A DNA stretch of 53,391 bases from Actinobacteria bacterium RBG_16_68_21 (GCA_001767695.1 MELR01000023.1:16326-69716); one strand, 5' to 3'. Shown: positions 2,786 through 49,557, counted from the first letter of the stretch. Notes: a model not told the origin generated them from the sequence alone. A program made the numbers and translations.

Positions 2786-2832
2786 CAGCGGACAGCGGAC
2801 AGCGGACAGCGGACAGCGGACAGCGGACAGCG
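2786..2832. repeat. tandem heptamer array (CAGCGGA) x6.7
   Basis: Perfect 7-nt tandem repeat read directly from the sequence. It lies in the convergent ispF/GDPD spacer and ends 2 nt before the GDPD stop codon (2835-2837). Confidence 0.95.
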
Positions 2833-2834
2833 CT

Positions 2835-3569
2835 CTACCCCAACGCGGCGCGCCCCACGTCGGGCCGGTTGGTGAAGATGACGCCGACCCCGGCGGCGGC
2901 GAGGCGTCGCATCTCGCCCGGGTCGTCGGTCCACCAGACTCCGATCTCGATTCCCCTCCGGCCCGCAGCGGCCACGACCGCGTCGGCCTGCCCGCCGCCC
3001 ATCGACATGAGCGGGGGGAAGAGCATCTCGATTCCCGGCACTGCGTCGAGAGCGTCGCGGGGGTCGGTACCGTGGTCGAGCACCAGGCCTGATCGCATTC
3101 CCGCCGCCAGCGCTGTTGCCACCGAGCCGCGATCGAACGACGAGAGCACGATGTCTCGCCGACCGCGTAGTGCCGCGACGGTCCGTGCCGCGACCGCGGC
3201 GTCGGGATCCCAATCGGGATCGGCGGGATCGTTCTTCACCTCGACGTCGATCCACATGCCGGCGCAGGCGGCGATGGCGGCGGCCAGGTCGGGGATACCC
3301 GGGTCGACCACGGCCAGTTCGTCGCGGGTCAGCGCGACGATGGGCCGGTTGGTTACCAACGCGTTGTGGTGAACCACGAGGGCGCCGTCGGCCGTCGCCC
3401 GAACATCCAACTCGACACCGTCGGCACCGAGCTCGGCGGCGTGTGTGAAGGCGGCGAGGGTGTTCTCCCGCCGGGCGTGCGACGCTCCGCGGTGGGCGAC
3501 GATCCACGGCCGGCCGGAAGGGTGGGGCACCGGGGGAGCATATGCGGGGCCGTGCAAGCCCGATACCAT
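2835..3569 (-). CDS. glycerophosphodiester phosphodiesterase family protein
   Basis: The WIVAHRGAS..ENTLAAF...GADGVELDVRATADGALVVHHN motif block is typical of GDPD enzymes. The start is uncertain; it lies only ~10 bp from the divergent cysS start. Confidence 0.8.
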   Translation of the reverse strand: MVSGLHGPAYAPPVPHPSGRPWIVAHRGASHARRENTLAAFTHAAELGADGVELDVRATADGALVVHHNALVTNRPIVALTRDELAVVDPGIPDLAAAIAACAGMWIDVEVKNDPADPDWDPDAAVAARTVAALRGRRDIVLSSFDRGSVATALAAGMRSGLVLDHGTDPRDALDAVPGIEMLFPPLMSMGGGQADAVVAAAGRRGIEIGVWWTDDPGEMRRLAAAGVGVIFTNRPDVGRAALG

Positions 3570-3579
3570 CCTCGCGCCG

Positions 3580-4983
3580 ATGAACGTCTACAACACCCTG
3601 GGCAGAGTCATGCAGCCACTGGAGCCGCGCACGCCCGGCGAAGTGTCGATGTACGTGTGCGGGCCGACCGTGCAGGCGGCTCCGCATGTCGGACACGGAC
3701 GACAGGCGGTGGCATTCGACGTGATCCGGCGGTATCTCGTGTGGCGCGGCTACGCGGTGCTATTCGTGACGAACATCACCGACGTCGAAGACAAAATCAT
3801 CAATGCTGCCGCCGAGGAGGGAATCACCGCCGAGGAGGTGGCCCGCCGGGCGACGGCCCAGTTCCTCGATGCCTACGGTCGGCTGCGGGTTCAGCCTGCG
3901 GACGAGCTGGTCTATGCGACCCACGAGATCCCGGCGATGATCGCCACCATCGCTCGGCTGATCGAGCGGGGTCATGCCTATCCCGCCGGGGGCGACGTGT
4001 ACTTCTCGGTGCGATCGCTTCGGGGCTACGGAAAGCTGAGCGGCCGCAACGTGGACGAGATGCGATCCGGCGCCCGCATCGACCCGGGGGAGCACAAGCA
4101 GGATCCGTTGGACTTCGCCCTGTGGAAGGCGTCGAAGCCGGGAGAGCCGGCCTGGGACTCGCCGTGGGGTTCGGGGCGACCGGGATGGCACATCGAGTGC
4201 TCTGCCATGGCCGTGGAACGCCTCGGGTTCGGGTTCGACATCCACGGCGGTGGTCTCGACCTGATCTTTCCTCACCACGAGAACGAGATCGCCCAGGCAG
4301 AGGGAGCGGAAGGAGATGAGCCGTTCGCCCGTTACTGGCTGCACAACGGGATGCTCAACCTGCGCGGCGAGAAGATGTCCAAATCCGAGGGCAACATCGT
4401 CGATCTGCTCGGACTTCTCGATCGCTACCGACCAGAGGCGGTACGGCTCTACTACCTGCGTGCCCACTACCGGCAGCCCCTCGAATTCGGTGACGACCTG
4501 CTGGCCGACGCCGAGGCATCGCTCGACCGGCTGTGGGCCTTCCGCCGGCGGATCGGTACCGTCGGCGACGCCCCCGATGCCGGGGTGGTCGCCGCCTTCC
4601 AGGCGGCGATGGACGAGGACTTCAACACGGCGGGAGCGATGGCAGTGCTGTTCGATGCGGTGCGCGAGGGCAACCGGCTCGCCGATTCCGGCGAAGATGC
4701 CACGCCGATCGCCGCCGCCTACGACGAGATCGTCGCCGTGCTGGCCATCGGCGAGGACGCCGTCGACGTGACCGACCTCGCCGGGGATCTCGGCGCTCTC
4801 GGGGCGGAGCTGGGGGTGGATGCGACGGAGCCGAGGGCCATCGTCGACGCCCTGGTCGCACTCCGTTCGGCGGCCCGGGAGGGGCGCGACTTCGCCACCT
4901 CCGATCGGATCCGCGACGAGCTGACCGAGCTCGGGATCGTTCTCGAGGATGGCGCCGATGGCACCACCTGGCATCGGCGATAG
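3580..4983 (+). CDS. cysS: cysteine--tRNA ligase
   Basis: It has the class I HIGH-type motif (PHVGHGR), the KMSKS motif and WGSGRPGWHIECSAM. I place the start at ATG 3580 (MNVYNTLG); the upstream part of ORF 3445 overlaps the GDPD gene. Confidence 0.9.
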   Translation: MNVYNTLGRVMQPLEPRTPGEVSMYVCGPTVQAAPHVGHGRQAVAFDVIRRYLVWRGYAVLFVTNITDVEDKIINAAAEEGITAEEVARRATAQFLDAYGRLRVQPADELVYATHEIPAMIATIARLIERGHAYPAGGDVYFSVRSLRGYGKLSGRNVDEMRSGARIDPGEHKQDPLDFALWKASKPGEPAWDSPWGSGRPGWHIECSAMAVERLGFGFDIHGGGLDLIFPHHENEIAQAEGAEGDEPFARYWLHNGMLNLRGEKMSKSEGNIVDLLGLLDRYRPEAVRLYYLRAHYRQPLEFGDDLLADAEASLDRLWAFRRRIGTVGDAPDAGVVAAFQAAMDEDFNTAGAMAVLFDAVREGNRLADSGEDATPIAAAYDEIVAVLAIGEDAVDVTDLAGDLGALGAELGVDATEPRAIVDALVALRSAAREGRDFATSDRIRDELTELGIVLEDGADGTTWHRR

Positions 4984-5775: not shown

Positions 5776-5851
5776 TGGAGCCGGGTGTCGGAATCGAACC
5801 GACGACATCCGCTTTACAAGAGCGGTGCTCTACCAACTGAGCTAACCCGGC
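5776..5851 (-). tRNA. tRNA-Thr (anticodon TGT), CCA encoded
   Basis: The reverse complement reads GCCGGGTTAGCTCAGTTGGTAGAGCACCGCTCTTGTAAAGCGG...GGTTCGATTCCGACACCCGGCTCCA. It folds as a cloverleaf with anticodon loop CTTGTAA. Confidence 0.9.
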
Positions 5852-5930
5852 GACAGACCCAGGCTACCGCCATGTCTTCCGCTTCAGCATGAGCCGGAGG
5901 TTCGTGGCATCCCCGAATTCCAGCTGGAGT

Positions 5931-5982
5931 TGGTCATTGGTCATTGCTCATTGCTCATTGCTCATTGCTCATCGCTCATCGC
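5931..5982. repeat. tandem heptamer array TGGTCAT x2, TGCTCAT x4, CGCTCAT x1, decaying
   Basis: Read directly from the sequence. It lies between tRNA-Thr (-) and the DUF3263 gene (+). Confidence 0.95.
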
Positions 5983-6289: not shown

Positions 6290-7486
6290 GTGGAGGGGGA
6301 CCACGGAATCCGCAGGGTCGGAGTCGTCGCCTGGAGTCTGCTCGGCACGCTTCTGCTGATCGGAGCCGTTCTCTGGCTCCTGACGAAGGTGTGGATCATC
6401 ATCCCGCCGATCGTGCTCGCCACCGCCATCATCTACGTGCTCAACCCCGTCGTGAATCGGCTGCACAACCGGGGGGTAGCCCGCTGGCTCGGGTCCTGTC
6501 TCTCGTACGCGGTGCTCATCGGGCTGTTGACCCTCGCCGGCTTCCTGGTTTTCCCCAGCATCGCCGATCAGGCCCAGGAGCTGGGCAGCAACTTCCCGAC
6601 GATCTACAACGATCTGGTATCCGACGTCGAGAACCTCGCCGCCAACATCGGGTTTTCCAAAGTGGAGCTACCGAGATTCGATGAGCTCGAAGCGCAGATC
6701 AACGAGGGGGACTTCTTCTCGAGCCGCCTGGCTCGTATCACCGACATCACCCTCGGTGTCTTGGAGACTCTCCTCATCCTGATCCTCGGTCCGGTGGTCG
6801 CCTTCTACCTGCTCCTCGATCTGCCGACGTTGCGGCGGAAGACGATGGAGTTGATCCCCGATCGACATCGCGCCGAAGTCGCGCATGTCTCCCGGCAGTT
6901 GGGCACTGCGGTCGGTGGTTTCCTGCGAGGCCAGCTGCTGGTGGCGCTCATCGTGGGGGTGATGACCAGCGTCGGCTTCTGGGCGATCGGCCTGCCGTTC
7001 TGGCTGCTCATCGGGATGATCGCCGGGTTTCTCAACATCATCCCCTTCGTCGGTCCCTGGGTGGGGGGTGCCCTCGGAGTGCTCGTGGCGCTGGCCACCC
7101 GGGACCTGCAGACCGCCCTCTGGGCGGGGCTGGTGGCGCTCGTCGTGCAACAGGTCGACAACCACTTCGTGAGCCCGACGGTCCTGCGGGTGACGGTGCG
7201 GCTGCACCCGGCGTCGATCGTGCTCGGCCTCATCGCCGGGGCGGCCATCGGGGGGTTCTGGGGGGTCCTGTTGACGGTGCCGGTCATGGCCTCGGTGAAG
7301 ATCATCGCCGGACATCTGTGGCGAACCCGGGTGCTCGGTCAGTCCTGGGAGGAGGTGACCGAGGCGCTCCTCGAGGAACATCCCACCGGTGAGACCTTCT
7401 TCAGCCGGATCCGACATGAGGAAGCGGTCGAAGACGCCGCCGAAGCCTCCGAAGAGTCTGATCCCGGCACCGACCTACACTCCTGA
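6290..7486 (+). CDS. AI-2E family transporter (PerM/UPF0118)
   Basis: A polytopic membrane protein of about 400 aa with AI-2E-like topology and an acidic C-terminal tail. Confidence 0.75.
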   Translation: MEGDHGIRRVGVVAWSLLGTLLLIGAVLWLLTKVWIIIPPIVLATAIIYVLNPVVNRLHNRGVARWLGSCLSYAVLIGLLTLAGFLVFPSIADQAQELGSNFPTIYNDLVSDVENLAANIGFSKVELPRFDELEAQINEGDFFSSRLARITDITLGVLETLLILILGPVVAFYLLLDLPTLRRKTMELIPDRHRAEVAHVSRQLGTAVGGFLRGQLLVALIVGVMTSVGFWAIGLPFWLLIGMIAGFLNIIPFVGPWVGGALGVLVALATRDLQTALWAGLVALVVQQVDNHFVSPTVLRVTVRLHPASIVLGLIAGAAIGGFWGVLLTVPVMASVKIIAGHLWRTRVLGQSWEEVTEALLEEHPTGETFFSRIRHEEAVEDAAEASEESDPGTDLHS

Positions 7487-9592: not shown

Positions 9593-9663
9593 TAGGCCTC
9601 GCTTTGCTCGGCCTGCGATTGGCGAAGCGTGAGCTAGGCAGATGGTGTCGGCGAGATGTCGCC

Positions 9664-9705
9664 TATTGCTAATTGCCAATTGCCAATTGCCAATTGCCAA
9701 TTGCG
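9664..9705. repeat. tandem heptamer array (AATTGCC) x6 (minus-strand reading TGGCAAT)
   Basis: Read directly from the sequence. It is unusually AT-rich for this DNA and ends 64 bp upstream of the alaX-like start. Confidence 0.95.
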
Positions 9706-9769
9706 TTCATCGCCATTCCGTCCCACCCATCATCTAACGTCCCTCTTCGCGCTTCCGAGGAGGATCGAG

Positions 9770-16793: not shown

Positions 16794-16800
16794 GAATCGC

Positions 16801-16917
16801 TGCCGCTGCCCGCCGAGCGCTACCGGCTGCTCGCACCCGCTGCCGGCTACCCGCAAGACCGTCGCATTGCGTATCGCGTGTGGCGTGCTGCGAATCACGA
16901 ACTACGAATCACGACCT
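16801..16917. repeat. degenerate heptamer array (TGCCCGC/TACCGGC/TGCCGGC/TACCCGC ... GCGTGTG/GCGAATC/ACGAACT/ACGAATC)
   Basis: The 7-nt period is visible by eye, with one 6-nt unit. The array fills the spacer from the ACAD stop to the PQQ-dehydrogenase stop codon (16918-16920). Confidence 0.75.
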
Positions 16918-18303
16918 CTACCTGACCGGCACCACCCGGAACAGTTGACCGTTGGAATCGACGACCAGCAGTTCACCGGTCGAGTCGGTGCCCAGCGCGG
17001 CGATCTGGATCTGACCGACGCCGGCGATGTCGGCCGACCAGTCCTGCTCCTCGGTGACCTGTCCGTTGTCGTAGCGGAAGGAGCGGATCCACCCGTTGCA
17101 CCAATCGGCGTAGAAGTAGTGGCCGACCAGCTCGGGCATCGCCGCCCCCCGGTAAACCACGCCGCCGGTGACCGCGCATCCGTCGTCGTGGCCGTATTCG
17201 AGTGTCGGCATCGTGAGGCCCGTCTCGTCGCACGCGCCCTCCGGCGTGTAGCAGTTGGTGCCCTCGTAGTCGGGCCATCCAAAGTTGAGTCCCTTGTCGG
17301 CGAGGGGCACGACATCGATCTCTTCGATGTCCTGCTGCCCGACGTCACCGATGTAGAGCAGGTTCTCGGGGGCGTCGATGTAGAACCGCCACGGGTTGCG
17401 GAACCCGTATTCGTAGATCTCGCCGAGGCCACCCCCGGAGGCGAACGGGTTGTCCGCGGGAACCGTGTACGGGTCGCCTCGATCGACATCGATCCGCAAG
17501 ATGCTGCCCTGGAGCACGGTGAGATCCTGGGCATTGCGGTTGCCGAGGCCGCCGTCGCCCAGAGCGATGTAGAGGTACCCGTCGGGACCGAATTGCAGCA
17601 TCCCGGCACGATGGCGAATTCCGGGCTGCTCCACCTCGAGAATCAGCTTCTCGGTGGAAGGGTCGACCGTCACCGCATCGGACCCGTCGGCGTGGAATTC
17701 GACGATGCGAGAGTTCAACCCGGGGTCGTCCGTGTAGTAGACGAACAACCGGCCGTTGGTGGCGTAGCCGGGGTGGAACGCCATCCCCAGCAGACCGTTC
17801 TCGACGCCGCCCGAGCCCACCCTGTCGGTGAGGTCGAGGAATGGTGTGCTCAGCAGCCCCTGACCGGGTATCACGACGCCGATCGCCCCGCCCCGCTCGG
17901 TCACGAAGATCCGGTCGTCACCGGGCAGGCTGAACGCCCCCACCGGGAAGGGGATCCCGGTGGCGAGGGTCTCCAGCTGGATGCCCTGCAGCGGTCCCAG
18001 ATCGGTGGGAATGGTCGCCCCGGTGGTGTCGGTGGCAGCGGTGGATCCGGTGGCGTCGCTGGTGGACGTGGAGTCGCCGACGGCGGTGGTGGCACCGGCA
18101 CTGGTCGTCGTCGAGCCGTCGGCGACTTCGCTGTCGGACCCGGAGAACGGCTGGACCAGCACCAGGAAGCCGATCAGCACTGCGAGCGAGGCGACGATCG
18201 CCAGCGTGAAGGGCAGGTTGGGGCCGGAGAACAGACCCGGGGGAGACGACGGCGCCGGTTGGCGGGGTGCCGGCTGGTTCTCCCAGGGGTCGCGACCACT
18301 CAT
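16918..18303 (-). CDS. PQQ-dependent sugar dehydrogenase (sorbosone/glucose dehydrogenase family), membrane-anchored
   Basis: It has beta-propeller motifs GLLGMAFHP, DGYLYIALGDGG, GSILRIDV, YGFRNPWR and GWPDYEG. There is an N-terminal TM helix followed by a Thr/Ser-rich linker. Confidence 0.8.
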   Translation of the reverse strand: MSGRDPWENQPAPRQPAPSSPPGLFSGPNLPFTLAIVASLAVLIGFLVLVQPFSGSDSEVADGSTTTSAGATTAVGDSTSTSDATGSTAATDTTGATIPTDLGPLQGIQLETLATGIPFPVGAFSLPGDDRIFVTERGGAIGVVIPGQGLLSTPFLDLTDRVGSGGVENGLLGMAFHPGYATNGRLFVYYTDDPGLNSRIVEFHADGSDAVTVDPSTEKLILEVEQPGIRHRAGMLQFGPDGYLYIALGDGGLGNRNAQDLTVLQGSILRIDVDRGDPYTVPADNPFASGGGLGEIYEYGFRNPWRFYIDAPENLLYIGDVGQQDIEEIDVVPLADKGLNFGWPDYEGTNCYTPEGACDETGLTMPTLEYGHDDGCAVTGGVVYRGAAMPELVGHYFYADWCNGWIRSFRYDNGQVTEEQDWSADIAGVGQIQIAALGTDSTGELLVVDSNGQLFRVVPVR

Positions 18304-18399: not shown

Positions 18400-19521
18400 G
18401 TGCAGGCTGATAATCCGCCGATGCAACGCCTGTTCCACGTCACCCCCGGTGCCGCCGAGGCCGTGGAGGTGGACGTCTCCCGACTTGGCGCAGCCCGCAC
18501 CGCCGGCGGATGGATCTGGCTGGATGTCACCGAGTTCATCCCCGGGGAGGTCCACGAGGTCGCCGGGGTCTTCGGCTTCGATCCCCTGGCGGTGCAGGAC
18601 GTTCTCGACTGGAGCGAGTATCCCAAGGTCGACGACCACGCCGACTACACCTTCATCGTCGGGCACGGCATCTCCACCGCTCCGGCCGAGCGCCTGGAGA
18701 CCACCGAGTACGACGTCTTCCTCGGCGTCGACTACGTGGTGACCTTCCACCAGGAAGACCTCCCCGGGTTCAGATGGGGCCGGGAGCACATCGTCGCTTC
18801 CGGGTCGATGACCGAGGGTTCGCCCGACATCCTTTGGGGACGGGTGGCCGAGGCCGAGGCGGGCCGCTTCAAACCGATCGTCGACGGCCTGGACCTCCGG
18901 ATCGGCGACCTCGAAGACCGGGCAATCGTGGCCGACCCCACCGTGCCCGCCGACGTGCTCGGGCTGCGCAGAGACGTGCAGACCCTGCGTCAGATCGTGG
19001 TCGCCGAGCGCGAGGTCTTCCGCGAGGTGGCCAGGGGGGAGTTGGTTGGCATCACCCGACGCGGGGCACGCCGGCTCGGTCATGTGTTCGACGACTTCTC
19101 CCGGCTCGCCGAGATCCTCGATGGTGCCCGCCTCCTGCTCGGCAATGTGCTCGACACGTACCGGGGAACTGTCGCCGAACGGGCCAACGAGGTGATGAAG
19201 GTCCTCACGGTCTTCGCTGCCATCGTGCTCCCGCTCTCGCTGCTCGCCGGCATCTACGGGATGAACTTCTCGCACATGCCCGAACTGGCGTGGCGCTGGG
19301 GTTACGCCGGGTTGATCGGCGTGATGGTGGTCGTCGGGGTCGGGTTGTGGTCGTACTTCTCGCGGCGCGGATTCATCGGCGGGCCCCGGCTCAGTCGGGT
19401 GCCGGGCGCGGTCGGGAAGGGCCTGGTCGACCTGGTCAAGCTGACCACCAAACCGGCCACGATGCTGCTGCACCTGGCGACGCGGCCGCCCGACGGTCGA
19501 AACGAGGGCGAATCGGGATGA
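18400..19521 (+). CDS. corA: magnesium/cobalt transporter CorA
   Basis: It has the YGMNF (GMN) motif before the last TM helix and CorA-like length. The start could be GTG 18400 or ATG 18421. Confidence 0.85.
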   Translation: MQADNPPMQRLFHVTPGAAEAVEVDVSRLGAARTAGGWIWLDVTEFIPGEVHEVAGVFGFDPLAVQDVLDWSEYPKVDDHADYTFIVGHGISTAPAERLETTEYDVFLGVDYVVTFHQEDLPGFRWGREHIVASGSMTEGSPDILWGRVAEAEAGRFKPIVDGLDLRIGDLEDRAIVADPTVPADVLGLRRDVQTLRQIVVAEREVFREVARGELVGITRRGARRLGHVFDDFSRLAEILDGARLLLGNVLDTYRGTVAERANEVMKVLTVFAAIVLPLSLLAGIYGMNFSHMPELAWRWGYAGLIGVMVVVGVGLWSYFSRRGFIGGPRLSRVPGAVGKGLVDLVKLTTKPATMLLHLATRPPDGRNEGESG

Positions 19522-20792
19522 GCGGGTACCGGTCGCGGCTATTCCTGCTGGTCGCCATCGCCGCAGCTGCTGTCGGACTCGGAGTGAAGTGGTCGGTTCC
19601 CGCCGTCGCCGCCGATCCGACCGACTGCACCCCCGGTGAGTTCTACGACGCCGGGGCCTGCACTCCGTGCCCCGAGGGAACCTTCCAACCGGATGCCGGT
19701 CGGGATGAGTGCCTCCCCGCCGACCCGGGCCACTTCGTGGCCGGCGAAGGGGCCGCCGAGCAGATGGCGTGCCCCCCTGGTGCCTATCAACCCGAAGCCG
19801 GTGGCGTGGCGTGTCTCCCCGCCGAATCGGGACACTTCGTCGCTACGCAGGCGGCCTTCGAGCAGGAGGCGTGCGCTCCCGGCAGTTACCAGCCGGATCC
19901 GGGCCAGTCGGGTTGCCTCGATGCCGATCCCGGTCACTACGTGGACGGCATCGCCGAGATCGCCCAGCACCCCTGCACTGCGGGCAACTTCTCATCGACC
20001 GCCGCCGCAACCTATTGCCGGTTTGCCGCGGCGGGTCACTTCGTCGCGGTGGCGAGGGCAACCTCCCAGACTGCGTGCCCTCCGGGCACCTTCCAGCCCG
20101 ATAGGGGAGGGGCGGCCTGTCTTCGCGCCGATCCGGGGCACTTCGCCGCCGGGGAGGGATCGGTGGCGCAGGCGGCGTGCTCTCCGGGGTGGTACCAGCC
20201 GGCATCGGGAGCGGACGGGTGTGTGCCCGCCGATTCAGGTCACTTCGCTCCCGATGAGGCGGCGCGCCTGCAGACCCCCTGTGGACCCGGTCGCTTTCAG
20301 CCGGACAGCGCGGCCCCAGGGTGCCTGGTCGCCACCGCGGGGCATTACGTCGGCGCGCCCGGCGCCATTGCGCAGGCCGAATGCCCGGTGGGGACCTTCC
20401 AGTCCCTGGCCGGAGCCACCGGATGCGTGACGGCCTCTCCCGGGCACTTCACGGTCGGTCCCGGTGCCACCGGGGAGATCGCCTGCAGTCCCGGGTCGTA
20501 CCAGCCTGCAGCGGGGGCCACCGGGTGTGCCCCCGCCGACCCGGGCTACTTCGTAGCCGCCGGCGCCGCGGTGTCACAACAGCCGTGTCCCGAAGGGTTC
20601 GAGGCACCGGACCCCGGGTCGGATGCCTGCACGCCGATCGTCGCCGGTGCCGACGGTTCTCCGGAACGCCCCGGCCCGGCGACGGCCTTGGTCTGGCTGC
20701 TCGGCATCGCCGCGGTTGTCGCGGTGATCGCCGTCGGTGTCACCCGGCAGCGCCCGCAGCGGTCCTGGAACGAGGGCCCGTGGCGGCGCTGA
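19518..20792 (+). CDS. secreted, C-terminally anchored protein with ~10 tandem 34-aa two-cysteine repeats
   Basis: It has a signal peptide (LFLLVAIAAAAVGLG...AVAADP) and repeats of the form C.PG.YQP..G...C..A..GHFV.......Q.. followed by a C-terminal TM helix. The ATG overlaps the corA stop (ATGA). Confidence 0.7.
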   Translation: MSGYRSRLFLLVAIAAAAVGLGVKWSVPAVAADPTDCTPGEFYDAGACTPCPEGTFQPDAGRDECLPADPGHFVAGEGAAEQMACPPGAYQPEAGGVACLPAESGHFVATQAAFEQEACAPGSYQPDPGQSGCLDADPGHYVDGIAEIAQHPCTAGNFSSTAAATYCRFAAAGHFVAVARATSQTACPPGTFQPDRGGAACLRADPGHFAAGEGSVAQAACSPGWYQPASGADGCVPADSGHFAPDEAARLQTPCGPGRFQPDSAAPGCLVATAGHYVGAPGAIAQAECPVGTFQSLAGATGCVTASPGHFTVGPGATGEIACSPGSYQPAAGATGCAPADPGYFVAAGAAVSQQPCPEGFEAPDPGSDACTPIVAGADGSPERPGPATALVWLLGIAAVVAVIAVGVTRQRPQRSWNEGPWRR

Positions 20793-23727: not shown

Positions 23728-23802
23728 TTCACACTGCCCAGCCTGCGCATCGATTCTGCAGCCTACCCGGCCGTACGGGTGCCTCCGCAGGAGACAGCGA
23801 GC

Positions 23803-23858
23803 TTCCAGGTTCCAGCAAGAACTGGCGACTGGCGACTGGCAACCGGCAACCGACTCTC
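23803..23858. repeat. heptamer array TTCCAGG/TTCCAGC/AAGAACT then GGCGACT x2, GGCAACC x2
   Basis: Read directly from the sequence. It starts 76 bp upstream of the DUF47 start. Confidence 0.9.
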
Positions 23859-24066
23859 ACCCCACCCGTCTCGAGGGCTGGCCGCGGCGGAGGAGCAGCG
23901 CGAGGAGCAACCCGGCGACGACGACGCCGGAAGAGATGAGGAAGGTCTCACCGAGAACCGTCGCCGACAGGCTCCGTTGGGCGGCATCGGCGGTGTCCTG
24001 AGGGTGCTTTGGGACCCGGCGGAGGGCAAGGCTTCGGGATGCGGCGATCAGCAGCATGGGAGACAT
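23857..24066 (-). CDS. possible small membrane protein
   Basis: Only the 3' ~70 codons of ORF 23857..24543 lie outside the IS element. They encode a hydrophobic helix (SSGVVVAGLLLALLL) followed by RRG. Support is weak. Confidence 0.25.
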   Translation of the reverse strand: MSPMLLIAASRSLALRRVPKHPQDTADAAQRSLSATVLGETFLISSGVVVAGLLLALLLRRGQPSRRVG

Positions 24067-25375: not shown

Positions 25376-25383
25376 TCACACGG

Positions 25384-35664: not shown

Positions 35665-35670
35665 AAGACG

Positions 35671-35737
35671 CCTTCCGCCTTCCGCCTTCCGCTTCGACTC
35701 TTGCGGGTAGCGGGTGCGGGTAGCCGGTGGCGGCGGC
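35671..35737. repeat. heptamer array CCTTCCG x3 then GGTAGCG/GGTGCGG/GTAGCCG/GTGGCGG
   Basis: Read directly from the sequence. It spans from 7 nt after the fabH stop to the MBL hydrolase stop codon (35738-35740). Confidence 0.85.
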
Positions 35738-36675: not shown

Positions 36676-36897
36676 TCACTGCCCGCTGGGGGCGGGGATG
36701 CGCGCCGGGCGGGGGACCGGCTGGAAATGCGTCCAGCAGTGCTCGTTCTTGTTGTACGCGGAGAGTCGCGTGGTGCAACCTCGGGCGGCGCAGACCCGGT
36801 CGGCGCCGTAGGTCTTGCGGGGCCTGCCTCCGTACAGCTTGGAGATGCTGTGGTCGCTCACGGCACCAACCTTGCCATGAATTCGCGAGTTACTCAA
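36676..36897 (-). CDS. small Cys/His-containing basic protein
   Basis: A 60-73-aa ORF with the pattern C-x4-C-x11-C-x2-H (CAARGCTTRLSAYNKNEHCWTH). The start is TTG 36897 or GTG 36861. I do not recognise the family. Confidence 0.45.
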   Translation of the reverse strand: MSNSRIHGKVGAVSDHSISKLYGGRPRKTYGADRVCAARGCTTRLSAYNKNEHCWTHFQPVPRPARIPAPSGQ

Positions 36898-36971
36898 AGG
36901 CGATTCGCCATCGGGGATGGGCCATTCGACGCAACGGAGGGAGCTGGGAGGCGACGCGGCCGGTCTCTTAC

Positions 36972-36999
36972 CGGAAACTGGAAACGGGAAAGTCGAAAC
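36972..36999. repeat. heptamer array CGGAAAC/TGGAAAC/GGGAAAG/TCGAAAC
   Basis: Read directly from the sequence. Confidence 0.8.
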
Positions 37000-37050
37000 C
37001 CCTGAGATTCACAACCCTCCGATCCGCCTTGTGCCAATATGGCGTCACGA

Positions 37051-37151
37051 AGAAAGGAGGTGGTCCGAAGGTGATAGCCAGTCTTTACGGGACTTCGGAG
37101 GTGGTCGGGCGCTAGGACGACCATCCCTGGGGTGGTCGTCCTCGGGCTTTT
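37051..37151 (+). other. candidate small transcript: 16-nt anti-16S-tail complement, 14-codon ORF, intrinsic terminator
   Basis: AGAAAGGAGGTGGTCC lies at 37051-37066. A GTG ORF at 37071-37115 encodes MIASLYGTSEVVGR. A second GGAGGTGGTC lies at 37097-37106, followed by the terminator. Confidence 0.35.
37114..37151 (+). terminator. rho-independent terminator
   Basis: A perfect 10-bp stem AGGACGACCA/TGGTCGTCCT with a 9-nt loop is followed by CGGGCTTTT. Confidence 0.6.
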
Positions 37152-37255
37152 CCGAAGGCGGCGACTCCAACCCGGACCACCGGAGTCGGGAGATCCGCGA
37201 GCTGGTCCTCTCGCGGCGGCGGCAACGCCGAAGCATCTCCCGGCTCTTCCGCGTC

Positions 37256-37297
37256 TACGGCGCACCGGCTGCCGGCGTCCGGCTACCGGCAAGACCC
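37256..37297. repeat. heptamer array (NNCCGGC): TACGGCG/CACCGGC/TGCCGGC/GTCCGGC/TACCGGC/AAGACCC
   Basis: Read directly from the sequence. It is closely related to the 16841-16861 segment. Confidence 0.75.
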
Positions 37298-37340
37298 TGC
37301 TGACGCCCGATCTGCGGGGGTCTGCAGAGCGGGCAGCGGG

Positions 37341-37811
37341 TTAGATCGCCCAGCTTCTTTCCACCGGTCCCAGCTCCACTGAGAGCAGATACTGGGGACC
37401 TTCCTCGGGATCGTTGATGGGCCCACCGGCTCGGTGGAAGCCGAGCCTCTCGAAGAAACCGTAGGCGCCGACCCGGGCGAGGCACCATGCCACCTGATCG
37501 GCGGTGGCCGAGGCGTGCTCGAGGCAGCGCTGCAACATCCACGCTCCCACCCCCCGGCCGCGGTGGCCATGTTCCACGGCGATGTCGCGGATCCGCCATG
37601 CCCCGGTCTGGGTACCCGAGGGCATGGGCTGGGGATGGACCGTGGCGACGCCGACCAGGACCCCGTCCTTGAACGCTCCGATGTGCAGCGCCGCCGGATG
37701 GGAGTCGGCCTCGTAGTCCACTGCGGCGAGGGGAAGTGCCGGGTGGAGCAACGCGCGGCGCAAGGGCCGCGCCTCAGCCGGCTCGATCCGCTGGAGTTCG
37801 TAGTCGCTCAT
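37341..37811 (-). CDS. GNAT family N-acetyltransferase
   Basis: It has an acetyl-CoA binding motif (VEHGHRGRGVGAWML). Length is 156 aa. Confidence 0.8.
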   Translation of the reverse strand: MSDYELQRIEPAEARPLRRALLHPALPLAAVDYEADSHPAALHIGAFKDGVLVGVATVHPQPMPSGTQTGAWRIRDIAVEHGHRGRGVGAWMLQRCLEHASATADQVAWCLARVGAYGFFERLGFHRAGGPINDPEEGPQYLLSVELGPVERSWAI

Positions 37812-42024: not shown

Positions 42025-42062
42025 GGCCGGTAATCCGGCAGCGGGCGGCGGGTAGCCTCTTG
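42025..42062. repeat. short degenerate heptad tract (GGCCGGT/AATCCGG/CAGCGGG/CGGCGGG/TAGCCTC)
   Basis: The whole 40-bp SDR-plsB spacer tiles as about 5.5 heptads. It contains GCGGGTAGC and GCCTCTTG, which are shared with other arrays. Confidence 0.35.
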
Positions 42063-42064
42063 CC

Positions 42065-44395
42065 ATGCCCCTCCACGCCGTAATCAGCGGTGAGGCCGAG
42101 TGGCCGGACGCCGGGAAGCGTCCGGTGTGCTTCCTGGTGGATGCCTCCGGATCGCTGGAACACCGGCTGATCGAACGTTGGGTGGAGCGGCACCGTCCGC
42201 CGGAGGGGGCTTATCGGATCGTTCGCCTGCTCCCATCGCGGCGGCGCAGGTTCGGATCGCTCGAGGCGCTTCGTGCCGCCCTCGAAGGTGGCGACGACTT
42301 GCTGCTGGTCCCGGTGCGGGTCGCCTGGTCCGCGACGCCGCGGAGGGGTCGACGGATACCCCGGCTAATCGATCTGGTCACGCTGGGTGATCCGCGCGAT
42401 CCCAACCGGCTGCTTCAGGAACTGATTGTCCGCTTCCGGCCCGATTGGGTGAGGGTGATCACCGGCGAACCGGCGACTGCAGCCGCCGTCCGGTCGCGTT
42501 GGATCGACCAGCGCGTAGAGCACCCGGAGGCCCCGACCGGTTTTGCCGAGTACGTCGCCCTGCAGGCGGCGCTGACCCTCGAGGTGGCGGAGCGGCGGGT
42601 GCGGGGAAACCGCTACAAGGTGCCGCGCTTCGTCGCCGAGGATCTGCTGGTGTCGGGGTCCTACCAGGTCGCCCTGGCAGACCTCGCCCGACGCTCCGGC
42701 GACGACGTGGATGACCTCGCCCCTCGCGCCGCCGGGTATCTGAAGGAGATCGCCGCTTCTCCGAGCACCTTCGTCATCGACCTGGTCGCCGCCCTGGTCC
42801 GGGCGATCTACACGATGGGGTATGACCGGCGAATCCGCTACGACCGGGCTGCCCTCGACCGCATCGCCGCCATCGGCCAATCCCACTCCCTCGCCTTCCT
42901 CCCCAGCCACAAGTCGAACATGGATCATCTCGCCCTCACGTACGTGCTGTACGAGAACGGACTCCCCCCGAACCTCACCGCCGGGGGCATCAACATGAAC
43001 TTCTTCCCGATCGGGGCGCTGCTCCGTCGGCACGGCATCTTCTTCATCCGCCGCTCCTTCAAGGACAACGAGCCCTACAAGCTCGTGCTGAAGAGCTACA
43101 TCGACTACCTGCTCGCCAGGCGGTTTCCGCTCGAGTGGTATCTCGAAGGGGGCCGCAGCCGCAGCGGCAAGCTGCGCGAACCGCGTTACGGCATGCTCTC
43201 CTACGTCGCCGACTCGTGGCGGCGTGGATCGTGCGACGACGTGGTGTTGATCCCCACCTCGATCGCCTACGACCAGATCCAGGACGTCGGGGCGCACGCC
43301 GCCGAGCAACGCGGCGCCGCCAAGGAGAGGGAGTCATTCTCGTGGATGGTCAAGGTGATCCGCAGTCTGCGACGCCGCTACGGGAGGATCCATCTCGGCT
43401 TCGGTGAGCCGGTCCATCTCTCGGAGTTCCTCGAGCGCTACCCGCCGGGGTACGAACCCGACCCGGAGGCCTCCCATCTGGAGATCGCCAAGCTCGCCTT
43501 CGAGGTGTCGGTGCGCATCAACCGGGTGACGCCGATCACCCCCATCTCTCTGGTGACGGTGGCACTGCTCGGAGCCGATCGGGCGCTGACCGTCGGTGAG
43601 GCTCATGATGCGGTGCGCGATCTGATCTCTTTCGTCGCAGCCCGCGAGCTCCCGGTGACGGAGCATGTCGATCTCGACGACCTCGGGTGGGTGGAGACGG
43701 CCCTCGAGGCCCTGGTGGAGCACCGGGTCGTCACCCGCTTGGTTGGAGGCACCGACACCGTCTATGCGGTCGGGACCGGTCAGGAACTGGCGGCGGCGTT
43801 CTACCGGAACACCATCGTCCACTTCTTCGTCACCGGGGCGATCACCCAGGTCGCGCTCGCGGCAGCCGCGGCCTCCGCCGAGCCCTCGGAGGAATTCTGG
43901 GCGACGGTGTGGTCGTTGCGCGACCTGGTGAAGTTCGAGTTCTTCTTTGCCGAGCGGGAGGAGTTCCGCGACGAGGTCGCCGCCGAGGTGGCGCGGCACA
44001 GCCCCGATTGGGAGCAGGAGATCTCTGCGGGGATGGCCGATGACGTGCTCCGCAGGATGCGGCCCGTGTCCGCGCCGTGGGTGCTCCTGCCGATCCTCGA
44101 GGCGTATCTGGTCGTCGCCGATGCTCTGGTGACGGCGGACTTCCGCCGGGATGTGGACACCAAGGAGCTATCTGCGATCTCGCTGGCGCTCGGGGAGCAG
44201 TATCGGGCGCAGCGCCGGATCCGCAGCGCCGAGGCGGTCTCCACCGTGCTCTTCGAAGGGGCCATCCGCCTCGCCGCCAACCGCGGCCTGCTCACCGGAG
44301 GAGACGTTGCCCGGTTGCGCGAGCGTGAGGCGTTTGCCGCCGAGATCCGGGCCGCGGTGGAGATGGTCGATCGGGTGGGTCACGCCGCGCCGTGA
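42065..44395 (+). CDS. plsB: glycerol-3-phosphate 1-O-acyltransferase
   Basis: It has the HKSNMD (HxxxxD) acyltransferase motif, FIRRSF and EGGRSRSGKL blocks. Length is 776 aa. Confidence 0.85.
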   Translation: MPLHAVISGEAEWPDAGKRPVCFLVDASGSLEHRLIERWVERHRPPEGAYRIVRLLPSRRRRFGSLEALRAALEGGDDLLLVPVRVAWSATPRRGRRIPRLIDLVTLGDPRDPNRLLQELIVRFRPDWVRVITGEPATAAAVRSRWIDQRVEHPEAPTGFAEYVALQAALTLEVAERRVRGNRYKVPRFVAEDLLVSGSYQVALADLARRSGDDVDDLAPRAAGYLKEIAASPSTFVIDLVAALVRAIYTMGYDRRIRYDRAALDRIAAIGQSHSLAFLPSHKSNMDHLALTYVLYENGLPPNLTAGGINMNFFPIGALLRRHGIFFIRRSFKDNEPYKLVLKSYIDYLLARRFPLEWYLEGGRSRSGKLREPRYGMLSYVADSWRRGSCDDVVLIPTSIAYDQIQDVGAHAAEQRGAAKERESFSWMVKVIRSLRRRYGRIHLGFGEPVHLSEFLERYPPGYEPDPEASHLEIAKLAFEVSVRINRVTPITPISLVTVALLGADRALTVGEAHDAVRDLISFVAARELPVTEHVDLDDLGWVETALEALVEHRVVTRLVGGTDTVYAVGTGQELAAAFYRNTIVHFFVTGAITQVALAAAAASAEPSEEFWATVWSLRDLVKFEFFFAEREEFRDEVAAEVARHSPDWEQEISAGMADDVLRRMRPVSAPWVLLPILEAYLVVADALVTADFRRDVDTKELSAISLALGEQYRAQRRIRSAEAVSTVLFEGAIRLAANRGLLTGGDVARLREREAFAAEIRAAVEMVDRVGHAAP

Positions 44396-44405
44396 GGCCT
44401 CGGGC

Positions 44406-44433
44406 GGGTGACGAGCGACCGGTGACCCCTGAG
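44406..44433. repeat. heptamer tract GGGTGAC/GAGCGAC/CGGTGAC/CCCTGAG
   Basis: Read directly from the sequence, immediately after the plsB stop. Confidence 0.7.
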
Positions 44434-44455
44434 TTGACGGCTGCGCCGTCAACTC
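44431..44455. terminator. hairpin between convergent plsB and nfu-like genes
   Basis: GAGTTGACGG pairs with CCGTCAACTC as a 10-bp stem with a 5-nt loop. It overlaps the nfu-like stop codon, and no U-tract is present. Confidence 0.45.
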
Positions 44456-45071
44456 ACTTCTTCGCCGCCTCGTAGTACGGGTTGGTGCCGGAGGCGTGGT
44501 CGGTGACGTCGATGATCGCTCCCACCTCGGGCACCGCGGTGCGAATCGCCACCTCGATGCCCTGACCGAGGGTCACCTGGGCGAGCCCGCAGCCGACACA
44601 CCCTCCGCCGAGGCGCAGGTATACGGTGTCGCCCTCCACGGCGACCAGTTCGGCGAAGCCGCCGTGGCCGGCGATCGCCGGGTTGATCTGGGTCTCCAAG
44701 ATGGTGGCGATCTTGTCGGCCAGAGGCCCGGTGAGCTCTGCGGTCCCGGCAGCGATCTTCGGACTCGGGCTGTTGGGATTGTCGATCCCGAGCGTTCCTT
44801 CGCCGGCACGGATGGTGGCTCCCTCCAGGCGGGCAACGCTGTCGGCGCGCACCACCACCGGAAGATCGTCGAACCGTTGCAGCACATCGGTGGCGGCGGC
44901 GTCGACGACCGGGATGAAGGTGAGCTCATAGGTGAAGAGGAGGCCCTTCACCCCGGTGATGCTCACGGTGAGAGCGAGCTCTTCGGCATCGGGTTCCTGG
45001 GCGCGAATGCCGAGGATGGCCTCCACGGCCTCCGGCGTGATCGAGATGACGGAGCGGTCCTCGATGGCCAT
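44454..45071 (-). CDS. Fe-S cluster assembly protein (NfuA-like: HesB/IscA-like N-domain plus Nfu C-domain)
   Basis: The C-terminal GGGCVGCG CxxC motif lies in an Nfu-type domain. The start is ATG 45071. Confidence 0.75.
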   Translation of the reverse strand: MAIEDRSVISITPEAVEAILGIRAQEPDAEELALTVSITGVKGLLFTYELTFIPVVDAAATDVLQRFDDLPVVVRADSVARLEGATIRAGEGTLGIDNPNSPSPKIAAGTAELTGPLADKIATILETQINPAIAGHGGFAELVAVEGDTVYLRLGGGCVGCGLAQVTLGQGIEVAIRTAVPEVGAIIDVTDHASGTNPYYEAAKK

Positions 45072-45129
45072 GGCGGGGGATGGTAGACGAGGCGCGGTTT
45101 CGAGCCACGCGGGAAGTCGTGGGCAGCAA

Positions 45130-45280
45130 GCGAAAGGCGATGAGCGATGAGCGAGATCCGGCCGGCAGGCCTCTTGTGACAACTGGAAACTGGAAACCGG
45201 CAACCCTTCCGGGTGACGGGTGACGGGTGACGGGTGACGGGCGAGGGGAAACTGGAAAGTGGAAACTGGAAACTGGGATC
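45130..45280. repeat. composite heptamer array of about 21 units (GCGATGA block, TGGAAAC/CGGCAAC block, GGGTGAC x4, TGGAAAC/TGGAAAG x4)
   Basis: Read directly from the sequence. It occupies most of the divergent nfu-like / ATP-grasp spacer and ends 9 nt before the ATP-grasp ATG. Confidence 0.95.
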
Positions 45281-45288
45281 ATCCCCTC

Positions 45289-46503
45289 ATGCCCCGCATT
45301 GCCCTGGTGCTTCCCACCGGCTCCTATCGAGGCCCCGACTTCGTCGCCGCCGCCGATGAGCTGGGGGTCGACCTGCTCGTGGCCACCGACGGCACGTTCG
45401 GGATGACCTCCGGCCGGATATCCGGGGTGGTGACGGTGGATTGTGGTTCGCCGGCGGACGCGGCGGCAGCCCTGGTGGGTGCCGCCGAGTCACTACCCGT
45501 CGACGCGGTGCTGGGGGTGGACGACGGGGGCGTGATGGTTGCCGCCATCGCCGCCCGCGCCCTTGGGCTTCCCCACAACCCCGTGGAGGCAGTGGCGGCG
45601 ACCCGGGACAAGGCGGGAATGCGGTCCCTGCTCGCCGCCGCCGGTGTGCCTCAGCCTCGCTACCTGGTGGCCGGTGACGAAGAGCAGGCAGTGGCCGCCG
45701 CCGAGGAACTGGGGTTCCCGGTGGTCCTCAAACCGGTGTCTCTGTCGGCGAGTCGGGGCGTCATCCGCGCCGACGACGCGACGACGACCCGAACAGCCGT
45801 CTCTTGGATCGAATCCATCCTCGCCGAGGCGGGCTCCGATTGGCCGATCCTCGTGGAGGAGTACCTGCCGGGTGACGAGGTGGCCGTCGAGGCGCTGGCC
45901 ACGCCGTCGGGACTGGAGATTCTGGCCATCTTTGACAAACCCGACCCACTCGAAGGGCCTTTCTTCGAGGAGACGATCTACCTGACCCCGTCGCGGCACG
46001 CCCCGGAGACGGTGGCGGCCGTCGGCGAGATCGTCGCCGCCGCGGTGGCGGCGCTCGGGTTGGTGCACGGACCGGCGCATGCCGAGGTGAGGATCACCCC
46101 GCAAGGACCCAAGGTCGTGGAAGTGGCGGCGCGGTCCATCGGAGGGCTGTGCGGGCGATCGCTCCGCTTCGGAATGCTCCATCAGAGTCTCGAGGTGCTG
46201 CTGCTGCGAGCCGCCCTCGGGCTTCCCCGGCGGGGGATGGGCAGAGAGCCGGCCGCCAGTGGGGTGATGATGCTTCCCATCCCCGCCGACGGAATCTTGC
46301 GGGCAGTGCGCGGGCGCCACGCGGTGGCCGAGGTTCCGCTGGTCACGTCGTTGGAGATCACCATCCCGATCGGGCGCCGGGTCAGGCCGCTGCCCGAGGG
46401 GGATCGCTATCTCGGATTCGTGTTTGCCTCCGGCGACGACCCGGCTGACGTGGAGGCGGCGCTCCGCGAAGCGCACGGGTTGCTCGAGTTCGTCATCGAG
46501 TGA
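45289..46503 (+). CDS. ATP-grasp domain-containing protein (carboxylate-amine ligase-like)
   Basis: It has the central ATP-grasp pattern (RDKAGMRSLL...GFPVVLKP...ILVEEYLPGDEVAVE...HAEVRIT). The start is ATG 45289. Confidence 0.7.
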   Translation: MPRIALVLPTGSYRGPDFVAAADELGVDLLVATDGTFGMTSGRISGVVTVDCGSPADAAAALVGAAESLPVDAVLGVDDGGVMVAAIAARALGLPHNPVEAVAATRDKAGMRSLLAAAGVPQPRYLVAGDEEQAVAAAEELGFPVVLKPVSLSASRGVIRADDATTTRTAVSWIESILAEAGSDWPILVEEYLPGDEVAVEALATPSGLEILAIFDKPDPLEGPFFEETIYLTPSRHAPETVAAVGEIVAAAVAALGLVHGPAHAEVRITPQGPKVVEVAARSIGGLCGRSLRFGMLHQSLEVLLLRAALGLPRRGMGREPAASGVMMLPIPADGILRAVRGRHAVAEVPLVTSLEITIPIGRRVRPLPEGDRYLGFVFASGDDPADVEAALREAHGLLEFVIE

Positions 46504-48999: not shown

Positions 49000-49042
49000 G
49001 GGTAGTGATCGGGAGTCGGAAGACCCGGCGATGGGTGTCGGC

Positions 49043-49414
49043 TCAGGAGCCCGACATCCACTGGTTCCGCCGCTTCGAGCGGCTCCGTCCCCACTCGGTC
49101 GCTTCGAGCAGCATCGCCAACCCGAGCGCGATCACGACGATCGGCCACAGCGAGAAGGAACGGTCGATCACGTCGAGGTCGCGCAGGAGCATGAAGGCTC
49201 CGATCATCACCAACGCCAGTGGCCAGAACCAACCCCGACGGTTTCCCGCCAGCGTGCCGATCAACAGCCAGCCACCGATGGCGAGCCACACCAGAGTCCA
49301 CACCGAGATATCGGGGACTGCCCCCAATTCACGCAGCAGGAACAGGACGCCGACCGTGACCAACGCGAGGCCGAGGAATATGGGCCGGGGAGCGCGGTAT
49401 TCGGTGGCGGGCAT
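49043..49414 (-). CDS. small polytopic membrane protein (LiaF/DUF5668-like TM region)
   Basis: It has four hydrophobic helices and a basic C-terminal tail. Confidence 0.55.
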   Translation of the reverse strand: MPATEYRAPRPIFLGLALVTVGVLFLLRELGAVPDISVWTLVWLAIGGWLLIGTLAGNRRGWFWPLALVMIGAFMLLRDLDVIDRSFSLWPIVVIALGLAMLLEATEWGRSRSKRRNQWMSGS

Positions 49415-49438
49415 GCCGGTCAGGATACCGGTGGCCCG

Positions 49439-49557
49439 ATGCCAGGGACCAGTTGCCAGTTGCCAGTCTCCAGTCTCCAGTCTCCAGCAAGAAGGGTCCG
49501 AGGGCCGGTCGCTCGGGCGATGGTGTCTGGTCTCTGGCGGGTGTCGGGAGACGGGCG
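49439..49557. repeat. heptamer array; minus-strand reading TGGAGAC x3, TGGCAAC x2, then degenerate units
   Basis: The plus strand reads ATGCCAG/GGACCAG/TTGCCAG x2/TCTCCAG x3/CAAGAAG..., with 7-nt phase traceable up to the PPOX stop codon at 49565. Confidence 0.9.

Follow-up and report, generated by a model that had tools for sequence, protein, structure and literature searches.

Period-7 arrays in the intergenic spacers

The 53,391-nucleotide stretch of DNA analyzed here, termed the window (Actinobacteria bacterium RBG_16_68_21, GCA_001767695.1 MELR01000023.1:16326-69716), carries a family of tandem heptanucleotide arrays placed between genes, which are best read, with a probability of roughly 0.6, as slippage-driven and largely neutral heptanucleotide microsatellites of the long simple sequence repeat (SSR) or variable number tandem repeat (VNTR) class. 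The period of seven, the confinement to spacers, the restriction to one clade of Acidimicrobiia, the change of copy number and the turnover of units are all seen directly in the compared sequences, and no constraint of strand or structure is apparent. An initial annotation of the window had described a strict period-7 array family restricted to intergenic spacers, and the lag scans, shuffles and coverage given below bear this out.

Arrays were called over the whole 53-kb window with Tandem Repeats Finder (TRF), giving 16 period-7 arrays, of which 15 lie in spacers at the coordinates first reported and the sixteenth (2498-2512, 2.1 copies within a gene) is at chance level. A scan counting exact lag-N runs of at least 10 matches gives 12 runs at lag 7 and 0-2 at every other lag from 3 to 13; the intergenic DNA alone (~4.7 kb) yields 12 runs at lag 7 and none at lags 4-6 or 8-12. 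Shuffling the intergenic DNA 500 times with dinucleotides preserved gives a mean of 0.004 lag-7 runs and a maximum of 1, establishing the enrichment over shuffled sequence. Coverage at 18 or more of 21 lag-7 matches amounts to 337 of 4942 intergenic bp versus 5 of 45880 coding bp, and with the lone TRF call in a gene at chance level the earlier observation that coding sequence is free of arrays holds. The arrays account for ~7% of intergenic DNA at the strict threshold and up to ~16% including degenerate tracts, and the total of about 0.8 kb estimated previously is right if degenerate stretches are counted. The intergenic autocorrelation peaks at lags 7, 14, 21 and 28 (0.34, 0.33, 0.32 and 0.305 over a baseline of ~0.275), whereas the coding DNA of the window shows period 3 only.

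Shuffle tests on individual spacers give p<=0.0002 in nine spacers. Two further spacers, 42025-42064 (p=0.003) and 44396-44453 (p=0.007), hold only marginal, degenerate tracts with no TRF call, and 24088-24172 is an additional weakly periodic spacer (p=0.006). Arrays thus occupy 11-12 spacers in 53 kb, where 28 spacers are at least 25 nt long, at a density of ~0.3 arrays per kb. The initial count of at least twelve array spacers is therefore close, but the tracts 42025-42062 and 44406-44433 are only marginal and spacer 36862-37340 contains just two short local arrays with 3.9 copies each (75% identity). All three spacer types, convergent, tandem and divergent, are represented, with arrays on both strands and units differing between loci, as had been noted from the start.

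Once the arrays are masked the remaining spacer DNA keeps only a trace of period 7, so the arrays are discrete insertions of repetitive DNA, and the possibility that the intergenic DNA consists mostly of decayed arrays was rejected on the same grounds. Coding repeats were likewise rejected, as the arrays fall outside open reading frames (ORFs) of coding composition and are skipped by the ENA and JGI gene calls. The head-to-tail 7-nt units beyond chance expectation, at many dispersed and mainly non-coding loci (counted in the window and 19 related loci), are those of the long SSR/VNTR class.

Copy-number variation and unit turnover

Contig k141_4760276 (ENA ERZ27256843) was compared with the window over 39.5 kb at ~99.8% identity and differs from it by ~43 substitutions and 5 indels. 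Each of the five indels falls within a heptamer array or at its edge (+7 at 35671, -12 at 35697-35708, +35 at 45235, -6 at 9663-9668 and +28 at 16896). The +7 insertion is one additional unit of the (CGCCTTC) array and the +28 insertion corresponds to four additional ACGAATC units that other strains have at 16801-16917, where the tract is degenerate in the window. The -12 deletion at the edge of the (GCGGGTA) array and the -6 deletion at the 5' edge of the (GCCAATT) array are not whole units. In the spacer between the NifU-like and ATP-grasp genes, alleles of 151, 165, 179 and 200 nt occur among five assemblies, the sole difference being the number of CGGGTGA units. Together with the +7, +28 and +35 insertions this forms a whole-unit copy-number polymorphism among close strains, again as in long SSR/VNTR loci.

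The shorter or imperfect arrays of the NifU/ATP-grasp, GPAT/NifU and PNPOx/LiaF spacers are of equal length in all assemblies, with two point substitutions only. Variability thus rises with the length of the perfect tract, as slippage predicts, and slippage, listed as a candidate mechanism in the initial annotation, is supported by the variation in copy number. Unit turnover is illustrated by the array at 5930-5979, where the sub-arrays form a mutate-then-expand series TTGGTCA > TTGCTCA > TCGCTCA with one substitution per step. In about half of the related loci the GPAT gene has arrays in the spacers directly before and after it, and the units found there are unrelated (GCAGAAA/TCTGCCA, GGTACCC, GGCCTCC, CTGATGA, GCGAATT, AGTAGCG, GGGCAAG and others), such that these arrays either persist with sequence drift by mutation and expansion or are often reborn.

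Distribution in the Acidimicrobiia

The source of the window is an Acidimicrobiia metagenome-assembled genome (MAG), as its GPAT-like protein is closest, with amino-acid identities of up to 78%, to proteins of Acidimicrobiia/Actinomycetota MAGs, in agreement with the Actinomycetota-like genome suggested earlier. Loci of relatives and metagenome contigs compared with the window are given L-numbers. The clade comparison comprises the window and 19 related Acidimicrobiia loci, with ~50 Binatia/Myxococcota loci of similar GC as controls; relatives and controls were found with the same protein, one gene caller was used on all loci and arrays were scored at 17 or more of 21 matches. The 19 related loci, which come from unrelated studies, hold the same array class. 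In the clade the share of spacer bp occupied by arrays is 17% for convergent, 6% for divergent and 4.5% for tandem spacers, compared with 0.09% of coding bp (211/230742) and 0.2-0.3% of spacer bp in the Binatia/Myxococcota controls, and scans of the clade at lags 5, 8, 10 and 11 return essentially nothing. The share of spacers bearing an array is 30% for convergent versus 17% for other types, a difference that is not significant (Fisher p=0.09). More distant Acidimicrobiia (L016, L018, L019 and L025, GPAT identity at or below ~60%) are array-poor, indicating the trait is a property of a sub-clade.

Short-read contigs sometimes end at arrays, as might be expected were the arrays an assembly artefact or limited to this contig, but identical arrays with identical flanks recur in at least five independent assemblies (ENA, JGI, Logan) and the same array class is present in the 19 related MAG loci, leaving such an explanation with a negligible probability. 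Contig L085 ends at window position ~16890, inside a heptamer array, and because contigs of other assemblies end inside arrays, the arrays evidently fragment short-read assemblies of these genomes. The locus L024 has five runs of N (masked stretches).

Unit vocabulary

The units were compared as a vocabulary of 86 clade units, 66 of them distinct, with 61 period-7 repeats of the control lineages as a control set. The template NGGNNAY, proposed initially from the window, fits 9 of 16 window units, 27 of 86 clade units (31%) and 18 of 70 units outside the window, with 12.1±3.2 for letter-shuffled units; it is enriched but is no rule, leaving most units of the clade outside it. Two cores that recur among the units, ACTGG/CCAGT and GCAAT/ATTGC, account for the enrichment, each being present in 13 of 86 clade units against 1.3-1.7 expected and in none of the 61 control repeats.

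An exact search of metagenome contigs with (ACTGGTG)3 matches >120 contigs of 36-72% GC, some of which may be coding matches. The contigs of 45-58% GC among these carry many more heptamer arrays (TAGGGAT, ACTAGGG, ACTAGTC) far from the seed and represent a second heptamer-rich lineage. HIP1-type cyanobacteria were rejected as their source, with essentially no HIP1 found (0-2 copies per contig). Among the exact (ACTGGTG)3 contigs (L094-L173), L156 has 14 arrays in 8.5 kb, and L100 and L094 are likewise array-rich.

Some units contain Chi-like sequences, namely GCTGGTGG in a TGGTGGC array, GAAGCGG, and AGCGG in CAGCGGA, located at L001 6541-6601, L002 2526-2555 and window 2786-2832. The sequences GCTGGTGG, GAAGCGG and AGCGG are known as Chi sites of other bacteria, and the Chi-like content of the units is probably a coincidence.

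Structure, strand and register of the arrays

Folding of the window array spacers as RNA is no better than that of shuffles (z from -2.4 to +1.7). The 32 arrays of tandem spacers show no sense-strand skew for GC, AT or purine content (p=0.78, 0.23 and 0.39), and the ACTGG and GCAAT cores are found in both senses relative to transcription; the + strand, probably the leading strand, is slightly more often G-rich in arrays (50 vs 30, p=0.03). Compound arrays hold the 7-nt register across differing units, and at 49439-49557 a G occupies phase 7 in 16 of 17 units. The changes in compound arrays are not significantly uneven over the seven phases (p=0.31), and a periodic invariant base was therefore rejected as evidence for a binding lattice.

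No shared flanks, element ends or terminal inverted repeats were found among the arrays, the sole dispersed family being the GGAAACT array (D14), and a mobile element of the miniature inverted-repeat transposable element (MITE) or repetitive extragenic palindromic (REP) type was rejected for want of shared flanks. Rfam families do not overlap the arrays, the only Rfam features of the window being two tRNAs. A CRISPR array was rejected because the units are contiguous and 7 nt long rather than repeats of 20-50 nt with unique spacers. The heptameric direct repeats of the SARP type in Streptomyces promoters are spaced at an 11-nt period, and this type was rejected as the window gives no lag-11 signal and its units are contiguous.

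A slippage model and its alternatives

The arrays are best accounted for by slipped-strand mispairing, suggested by the length-dependent variability and the mutate-then-expand pattern. A chance duplication of a 7-nt unit would misalign during replication, units would then be gained and lost, and point-mutated units would be amplified in turn to give compound arrays. Such tracts would persist only where length changes that are not multiples of three are tolerated, that is, between genes. A propensity to form arrays would be inherited within one Acidimicrobiia clade. The arrays would presumably be mostly neutral passengers, which may incidentally alter the spacing of promoters, untranslated regions (UTRs) and terminators and so lead to strain-to-strain differences in expression. 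The heptamer-rich Xanthomonas, Burkholderia and cyanobacteria carry MutS/MutL. As such lineages exist, the NucS pathway is not the cause of the arrays. Actinobacteria are without MutS/MutL, and their NucS pathway leaves indels uncorrected (PMC8228993); NucS mismatch repair may thus help to tolerate the products of slippage.

Several observations weigh against this model, beginning with the weakness of that repair argument. Units of 5, 8, 10 and 11 nt would be equally tolerable between genes yet are absent, leaving period 7 unique. The vocabulary is non-random, with its ACTGG and GCAAT cores, and the recurrence of units across very different genomes, as with the (ACTGGTG)3 contigs, is the main point that slippage leaves unexplained. 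An array is kept beside the GPAT gene in about half of the relatives despite differing units, and there could be selection for having some array there, whatever its unit. The inverted array pair at L001 1528-1603 forms a long imperfect hairpin (-65.7 kcal/mol, z=-6.3), and in convergent spacers the gene-proximal array tends to be C-rich in the sense strand of that gene (p=0.014, n=19).

Three of these points, namely the exclusive period, the restricted vocabulary and the frequent retention of an array next to the GPAT gene despite changes in the array sequence, together with the ACTGGTG arrays in contigs of very different GC, would fit binding lattices. Here a protein with a ~7-nt footprint, which might be of the OB-fold or cold-shock type if it binds single strands and nucleoid-associated if it binds duplex DNA, would coat the arrays and tune the transcription or translation of neighbors with copy number as the dose. 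Several arrays end within ~12-25 nt of a start codon (45276/45289 and 42062/42065), reporter assays in Nostoc show an effect of heptamer repeats on promoter output and suggest that such repeats modulate promoters (bioRxiv 10.1101/2022.06.06.494920), and cold-shock proteins and S1 are among the binders put forward (PMC4679880). A lattice is nevertheless unlikely given the dozens of units that bear no relation to one another (66 of the 86 are distinct), the lack of orientation preference relative to the transcribed strand, the free variation of copy number between near-identical strains and the occurrence of arrays at no lower frequency in convergent spacers, where promoters and start codons are lacking. 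The seemingly invariant phases are statistically indistinguishable from neutral descent, and with phase-specific conservation in compound arrays not significant, the lattice proposed in the initial annotation gains no positive support. A broader form of the idea, that some factor with a 7-nt register, either conserved or spread horizontally, creates or maintains arrays across very different bacteria, with period 7 and the ACTG(G) units not by-products of slippage, is improbable. It would join the Acidimicrobiia clade with cyanobacteria (STRR1), Beggiatoaceae (TAACTGA) and the mid-GC metagenome lineage; a single-strand-binding, primase- or polymerase-associated, or nucleoid protein would be a candidate, and if the idea is true the factor could be sought in the Acidimicrobiia clade by phylogenetic profiling.

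The hairpin and the C-rich bias bear instead on a role at gene ends, in which inverted pairs would fold into terminator or insulator hairpins, or C-rich unstructured 3' tracts would load Rho, and the bias would suit either arrangement, inverted pairs as well as rut-like tracts. Coverage is highest in convergent spacers, inverted pairs similar to that of L001 are found at L008 13520-13609 and L021 20-240, the window has a weak version at 35669-35733 that also exemplifies the C-rich bias, and the window arrays are unstructured like rut sites. This composition of convergent-spacer arrays is the one weak signal for the transcription punctuation suggested earlier. Arrays are also present in the divergent spacer 45072-45288 and just upstream of start codons, stop-proximal arrays of tandem spacers have no C-rich bias (p=0.47), shuffled sequences fold as well as the window array spacers, the difference between spacer types is not significant, and no terminator-like site was found in 44380-45320. 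Taken with these points the gene-end role is doubtful. G-quadruplex elements like the Xanthomonas GGGAATC and Nostoc GGGGA(T/C)T repeats are less probable still. The (CGGGTGA)n array at 45210-45241 matches G3N4G3N4G3N4G3, GGG is present in 19 of 86 clade units and the Xanthomonas repeats are similarly intergenic, length-variable between relatives and found in inverted pairs (PMC4692102), but GGG is about equally frequent in the control period-7 repeats (13/61), most units are without a G-run (CAGCGGA, TTGCTCA, GCCAATT, GGAAACT, CCAGTCT), and with a single canonical motif in the window the quadruplex is refuted as a general explanation.

Arrays by spacer and their gene context

Window genes were assigned from public assemblies with the same proteins, a composition-based caller and Pfam, and are ordinary housekeeping and transport genes (CysS, AI-2E transporter, CorA, PHO4/PhoU, Kup, FabH, AcnX, a PlsB/GPAT-like acyltransferase, NifU-like, ATP-grasp and P-type ATPase) plus two tRNAs. 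Exact-protein look-ups for the genes 2835-3569 and 49960-50469 returned no match.

Four convergent spacers hold arrays (2712-2834, 16794-16917, 35665-35737 and 44396-44453), three of them being nearly filled. In 2712-2834 a perfect (CAGCGGA) array of 6.7 copies at 2786-2832 (TRF, shuffle p<=0.0002) stops 2 nt from the stop codon of the gene 2835-3569 (-). Spacer 16794-16917 is filled by a degenerate compound tract of period 7/14 (16798-16914; TRF, autocorrelation, shuffles), which terminates in (CGAATCA) x3.4 at 16891-16914. The spacer 35665-35737 contains (CGCCTTC) x3.4 at 35669-35692 in its left half, C-rich on the + strand, and (GCGGGTA) x4.6 with indels at 35703-35733 in its right half, G-rich on the + strand, both called by TRF. 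The marginal degenerate array CGGGTGA CGAGCGA CCGGTGA CCCCTGA at 44405-44432 (p=0.007) lies in 44396-44453 and is followed by a hairpin with a 9-bp stem.

The tandem spacers with arrays are 9593-9769, 23728-23856, 36862-37340, 42025-42064 and 49415-49564. The first holds (GCCAATT) x6.3 at 9661-9704 (TRF, shuffles). In the second, a compound array at 23803-23858 with a core of (AACTGGC/GGCGACT) x4.4 at 23820-23850 (TRF, shuffles) abuts the stop of a 76-aa gene (23857-24087, -), upstream of the PhoU-like gene 23113-23727 (-). Spacer 36862-37340 contains the (GGAAACT) array at 36973-36999 (TRF; 3.9 copies, 75% identity, family D14), whose unit is also found at 45181 and 45247, and the (ACCGGCT) array at 37264-37290 (TRF; 3.9 copies, 75% identity), 51 nt from the stop of the gene 37341-37811 (-). 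The marginal degenerate tract at 42025-42062 (p=0.003, no TRF call) fills the 40-nt spacer ahead of the PlsB/GPAT-like gene 42065-44395 (+). In 49415-49564, (CCAGTTG) x2.7 followed by (CCAGTCT) x3.6 at 49449-49487 (TRF) is identical in six assemblies and continues as ten degenerate units in the same 7-nt register at 49488-49557 (shuffles).

Divergent spacers with arrays are 45072-45288, 24088-24172 and the spacer between a tRNA-Thr (5776-5851, -) and the AI-2E transporter gene (6290-7486, +). The last contains (TTGGTCA)2 (TTGCTCA)4 (TCGCTCA)1 at 5930-5979 (TRF), and 24088-24172 is periodic only weakly (lag-7 identity 0.40, p=0.006). The spacer 45072-45288, between the NifU-like and ATP-grasp genes, has four arrays called by TRF: (GCGATGA) x2.6 at 45137-45154, (AACTGGA) x2.4 at 45181-45197, a perfect (CGGGTGA) x4.6 at 45210-45241 and (GGAAACT) x4.3 at 45247-45276. 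The (CGGGTGA) array, considered also as a candidate phase-variation contingency locus, is the most variable of all and lies 48-79 nt upstream of the ATP-grasp start, its copy number varying between strains; no promoter was located there, and the (GGAAACT) array, of the same length across assemblies, ends 12 nt ahead of the ATG at 45289.

A motif GTA(C/G)CCTCC followed by ATG within ~10 nt is found upstream of the GPAT-like gene in the window (42047-42067), in L001 (1607-1629) and in L002, L003 and L006, and is kept in several relatives while the adjoining arrays differ completely; its CCUCC is the anti-Shine-Dalgarno sequence, not the Shine-Dalgarno sequence itself. Repeats with periods of 27 nt and 36 nt at 18020-18072 and 26849-26919 lie inside a GSDH-like gene and the gene of a 445-aa protein and are, as multiples of three, ordinary in-frame repeats unrelated to the heptamers. 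The gene of a 424-aa protein (19518-20792, +) has no Pfam match and is internally repetitive at the DNA level, with repeats 102 nt and 408 nt in length (families D1 and D8), which makes its product a repeat-domain protein. An IS481-like transposase gene (helix-turn-helix and rve domains, 24173-25330, +) neighbors a tRNA-Arg(cct) (25382-25456, -), and no heptamer array is present in the spacer 25331-25677 beyond it. ARAGORN calls a 101-nt tRNA-Ser at 4536-4636 (-) within the CysS coding region, which is probably a false positive as Rfam has no match there.

Comparison with known heptanucleotide repeats

Heptanucleotides are the commonest class of long SSR in most prokaryotic genomes (Mrázek, Guo & Shah 2007, as reported in PMC4679880). 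The ten genomes richest in repeats of 5-11 nt are reported to comprise three Actinobacteria, four Burkholderia, two cyanobacteria and Xanthomonas, and polymerase slippage with a 7-nt contact was suggested as the cause (Mrázek 2007, as summarized in PMC4679880 and PMC4692102). Going by these summaries, the suggestion that such arrays were undescribed in Actinomycetota is not supported. The long SSRs as summarized there share with the window arrays the exact head-to-tail 7-nt units, the many dispersed intergenic loci, a patchy distribution over lineages including Actinobacteria and an attribution to slippage. The differences are that uncultured Acidimicrobiia are not among the lineages the summaries describe and that many unit types occur here with none dominant. 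A literature search for heptamer arrays in Acidimicrobiia found no description.

Xanthomonas campestris carries 186 GGGAATC-type arrays (Rehm et al. 2015, PMC4692102), and, assuming a genome of ~5 Mb and a representative window, the array density here is about ten-fold higher. The Xanthomonas arrays are intergenic; related species have them between the same gene pairs, though with other lengths and sequences, and some arrays form inverted pairs (PMC4692102). The Xanthomonas GGGAATC and Nostoc GGGGA(T/C)T families thus resemble the arrays described here in their intergenic position between the same gene pairs, their variability and some inverted pairs in convergent spacers, and Xanthomonas is likewise high-GC. 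Those families share one G-rich quadruplex-forming consensus, whereas a minority of the present units is quadruplex-capable and, in the window, only 45210-45241 has the run of at least three G in each of four or more units that quadruplex repeats of the GGGNATC type require.

The STRR heptamers of heterocystous cyanobacteria, reportedly CCCCAGT, TTGGTCA and CAACAGT as given by Mazel et al. in 1990, are also intergenic tandem heptamers with several unit types per genome, and the likeness in kind noted initially is fair. The STRR1 core CCAGT/ACTGG is one of the two cores enriched here, STRR1-like ACTGGGG units occur in the relative L002 (5531-5567) and two STRR2 units, TTGGTCA, head the window array at 5930. 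The identity of a window unit with STRR2 rests on that tandem pair, but the array is mainly TTGCTCA and the resemblance is weak; tandem CCCCAGT and CAACAGT are absent from the window. The host is of another phylum at ~68% GC, its nearest relatives being Acidimicrobiia/Actinomycetota MAGs rather than cyanobacteria, most units are unrelated and there is no evidence of common descent.

TAACTGA repeats are described in Beggiatoaceae, cyanobacteria and Bacteroidetes, with a binding protein proposed (MacGregor 2015, PMC4679880). Like the present arrays, those of marine Beggiatoaceae are intergenic heptamers with 2-6 copies in most sets, a patchy distribution across phyla and a unit containing ACTG. 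In contrast to the Beggiatoaceae type, defined by forward-oriented TAACTGA units a few nt ahead of start codons, the window has no TAACTGA tandem, and the arrays here have many units in both orientations without bias, occupy all spacer types and favor gene 3' ends if anything.

Single-locus heptamers of known effect include the 7-nt repeats that tune hmw1A/hmw2A in Haemophilus influenzae (PMC8262952, PMC12721329) and the TTTTGAT repeats of the ctxAB promoter in Vibrio cholerae, where copy number tunes expression and binding proteins are known (bioRxiv 10.1101/2021.05.14.444153). These are strain-variable heptamers between promoter and start codon, and (CGGGTGA)n upstream of the ATP-grasp gene is placed alike. 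They differ in being single loci with a demonstrated effect on expression, whereas the arrays here are widespread across spacers, any effect on expression being putative.

Heptanucleotide arrays have been known in cyanobacteria since 1990 and as a general feature of some bacterial genomes since 2007. With array-free sister lineages at hand, one can search for genes whose presence follows that of the trait, and the copy-number alleles already in public metagenomes allow mutation dynamics to be followed in uncultivated strains. In practice, users of these MAGs should expect short-read assemblies to break at the arrays, and spurious ORFs and start-codon calls to be lengthened by them. The arrays belong to a known class, the heptanucleotide long SSRs of the STRR type, and are not a new kind of element; what is new is the Acidimicrobiia lineage, a high-GC, non-cyanobacterial host group in which the arrays are notable for their unusual density and the diversity of their units.

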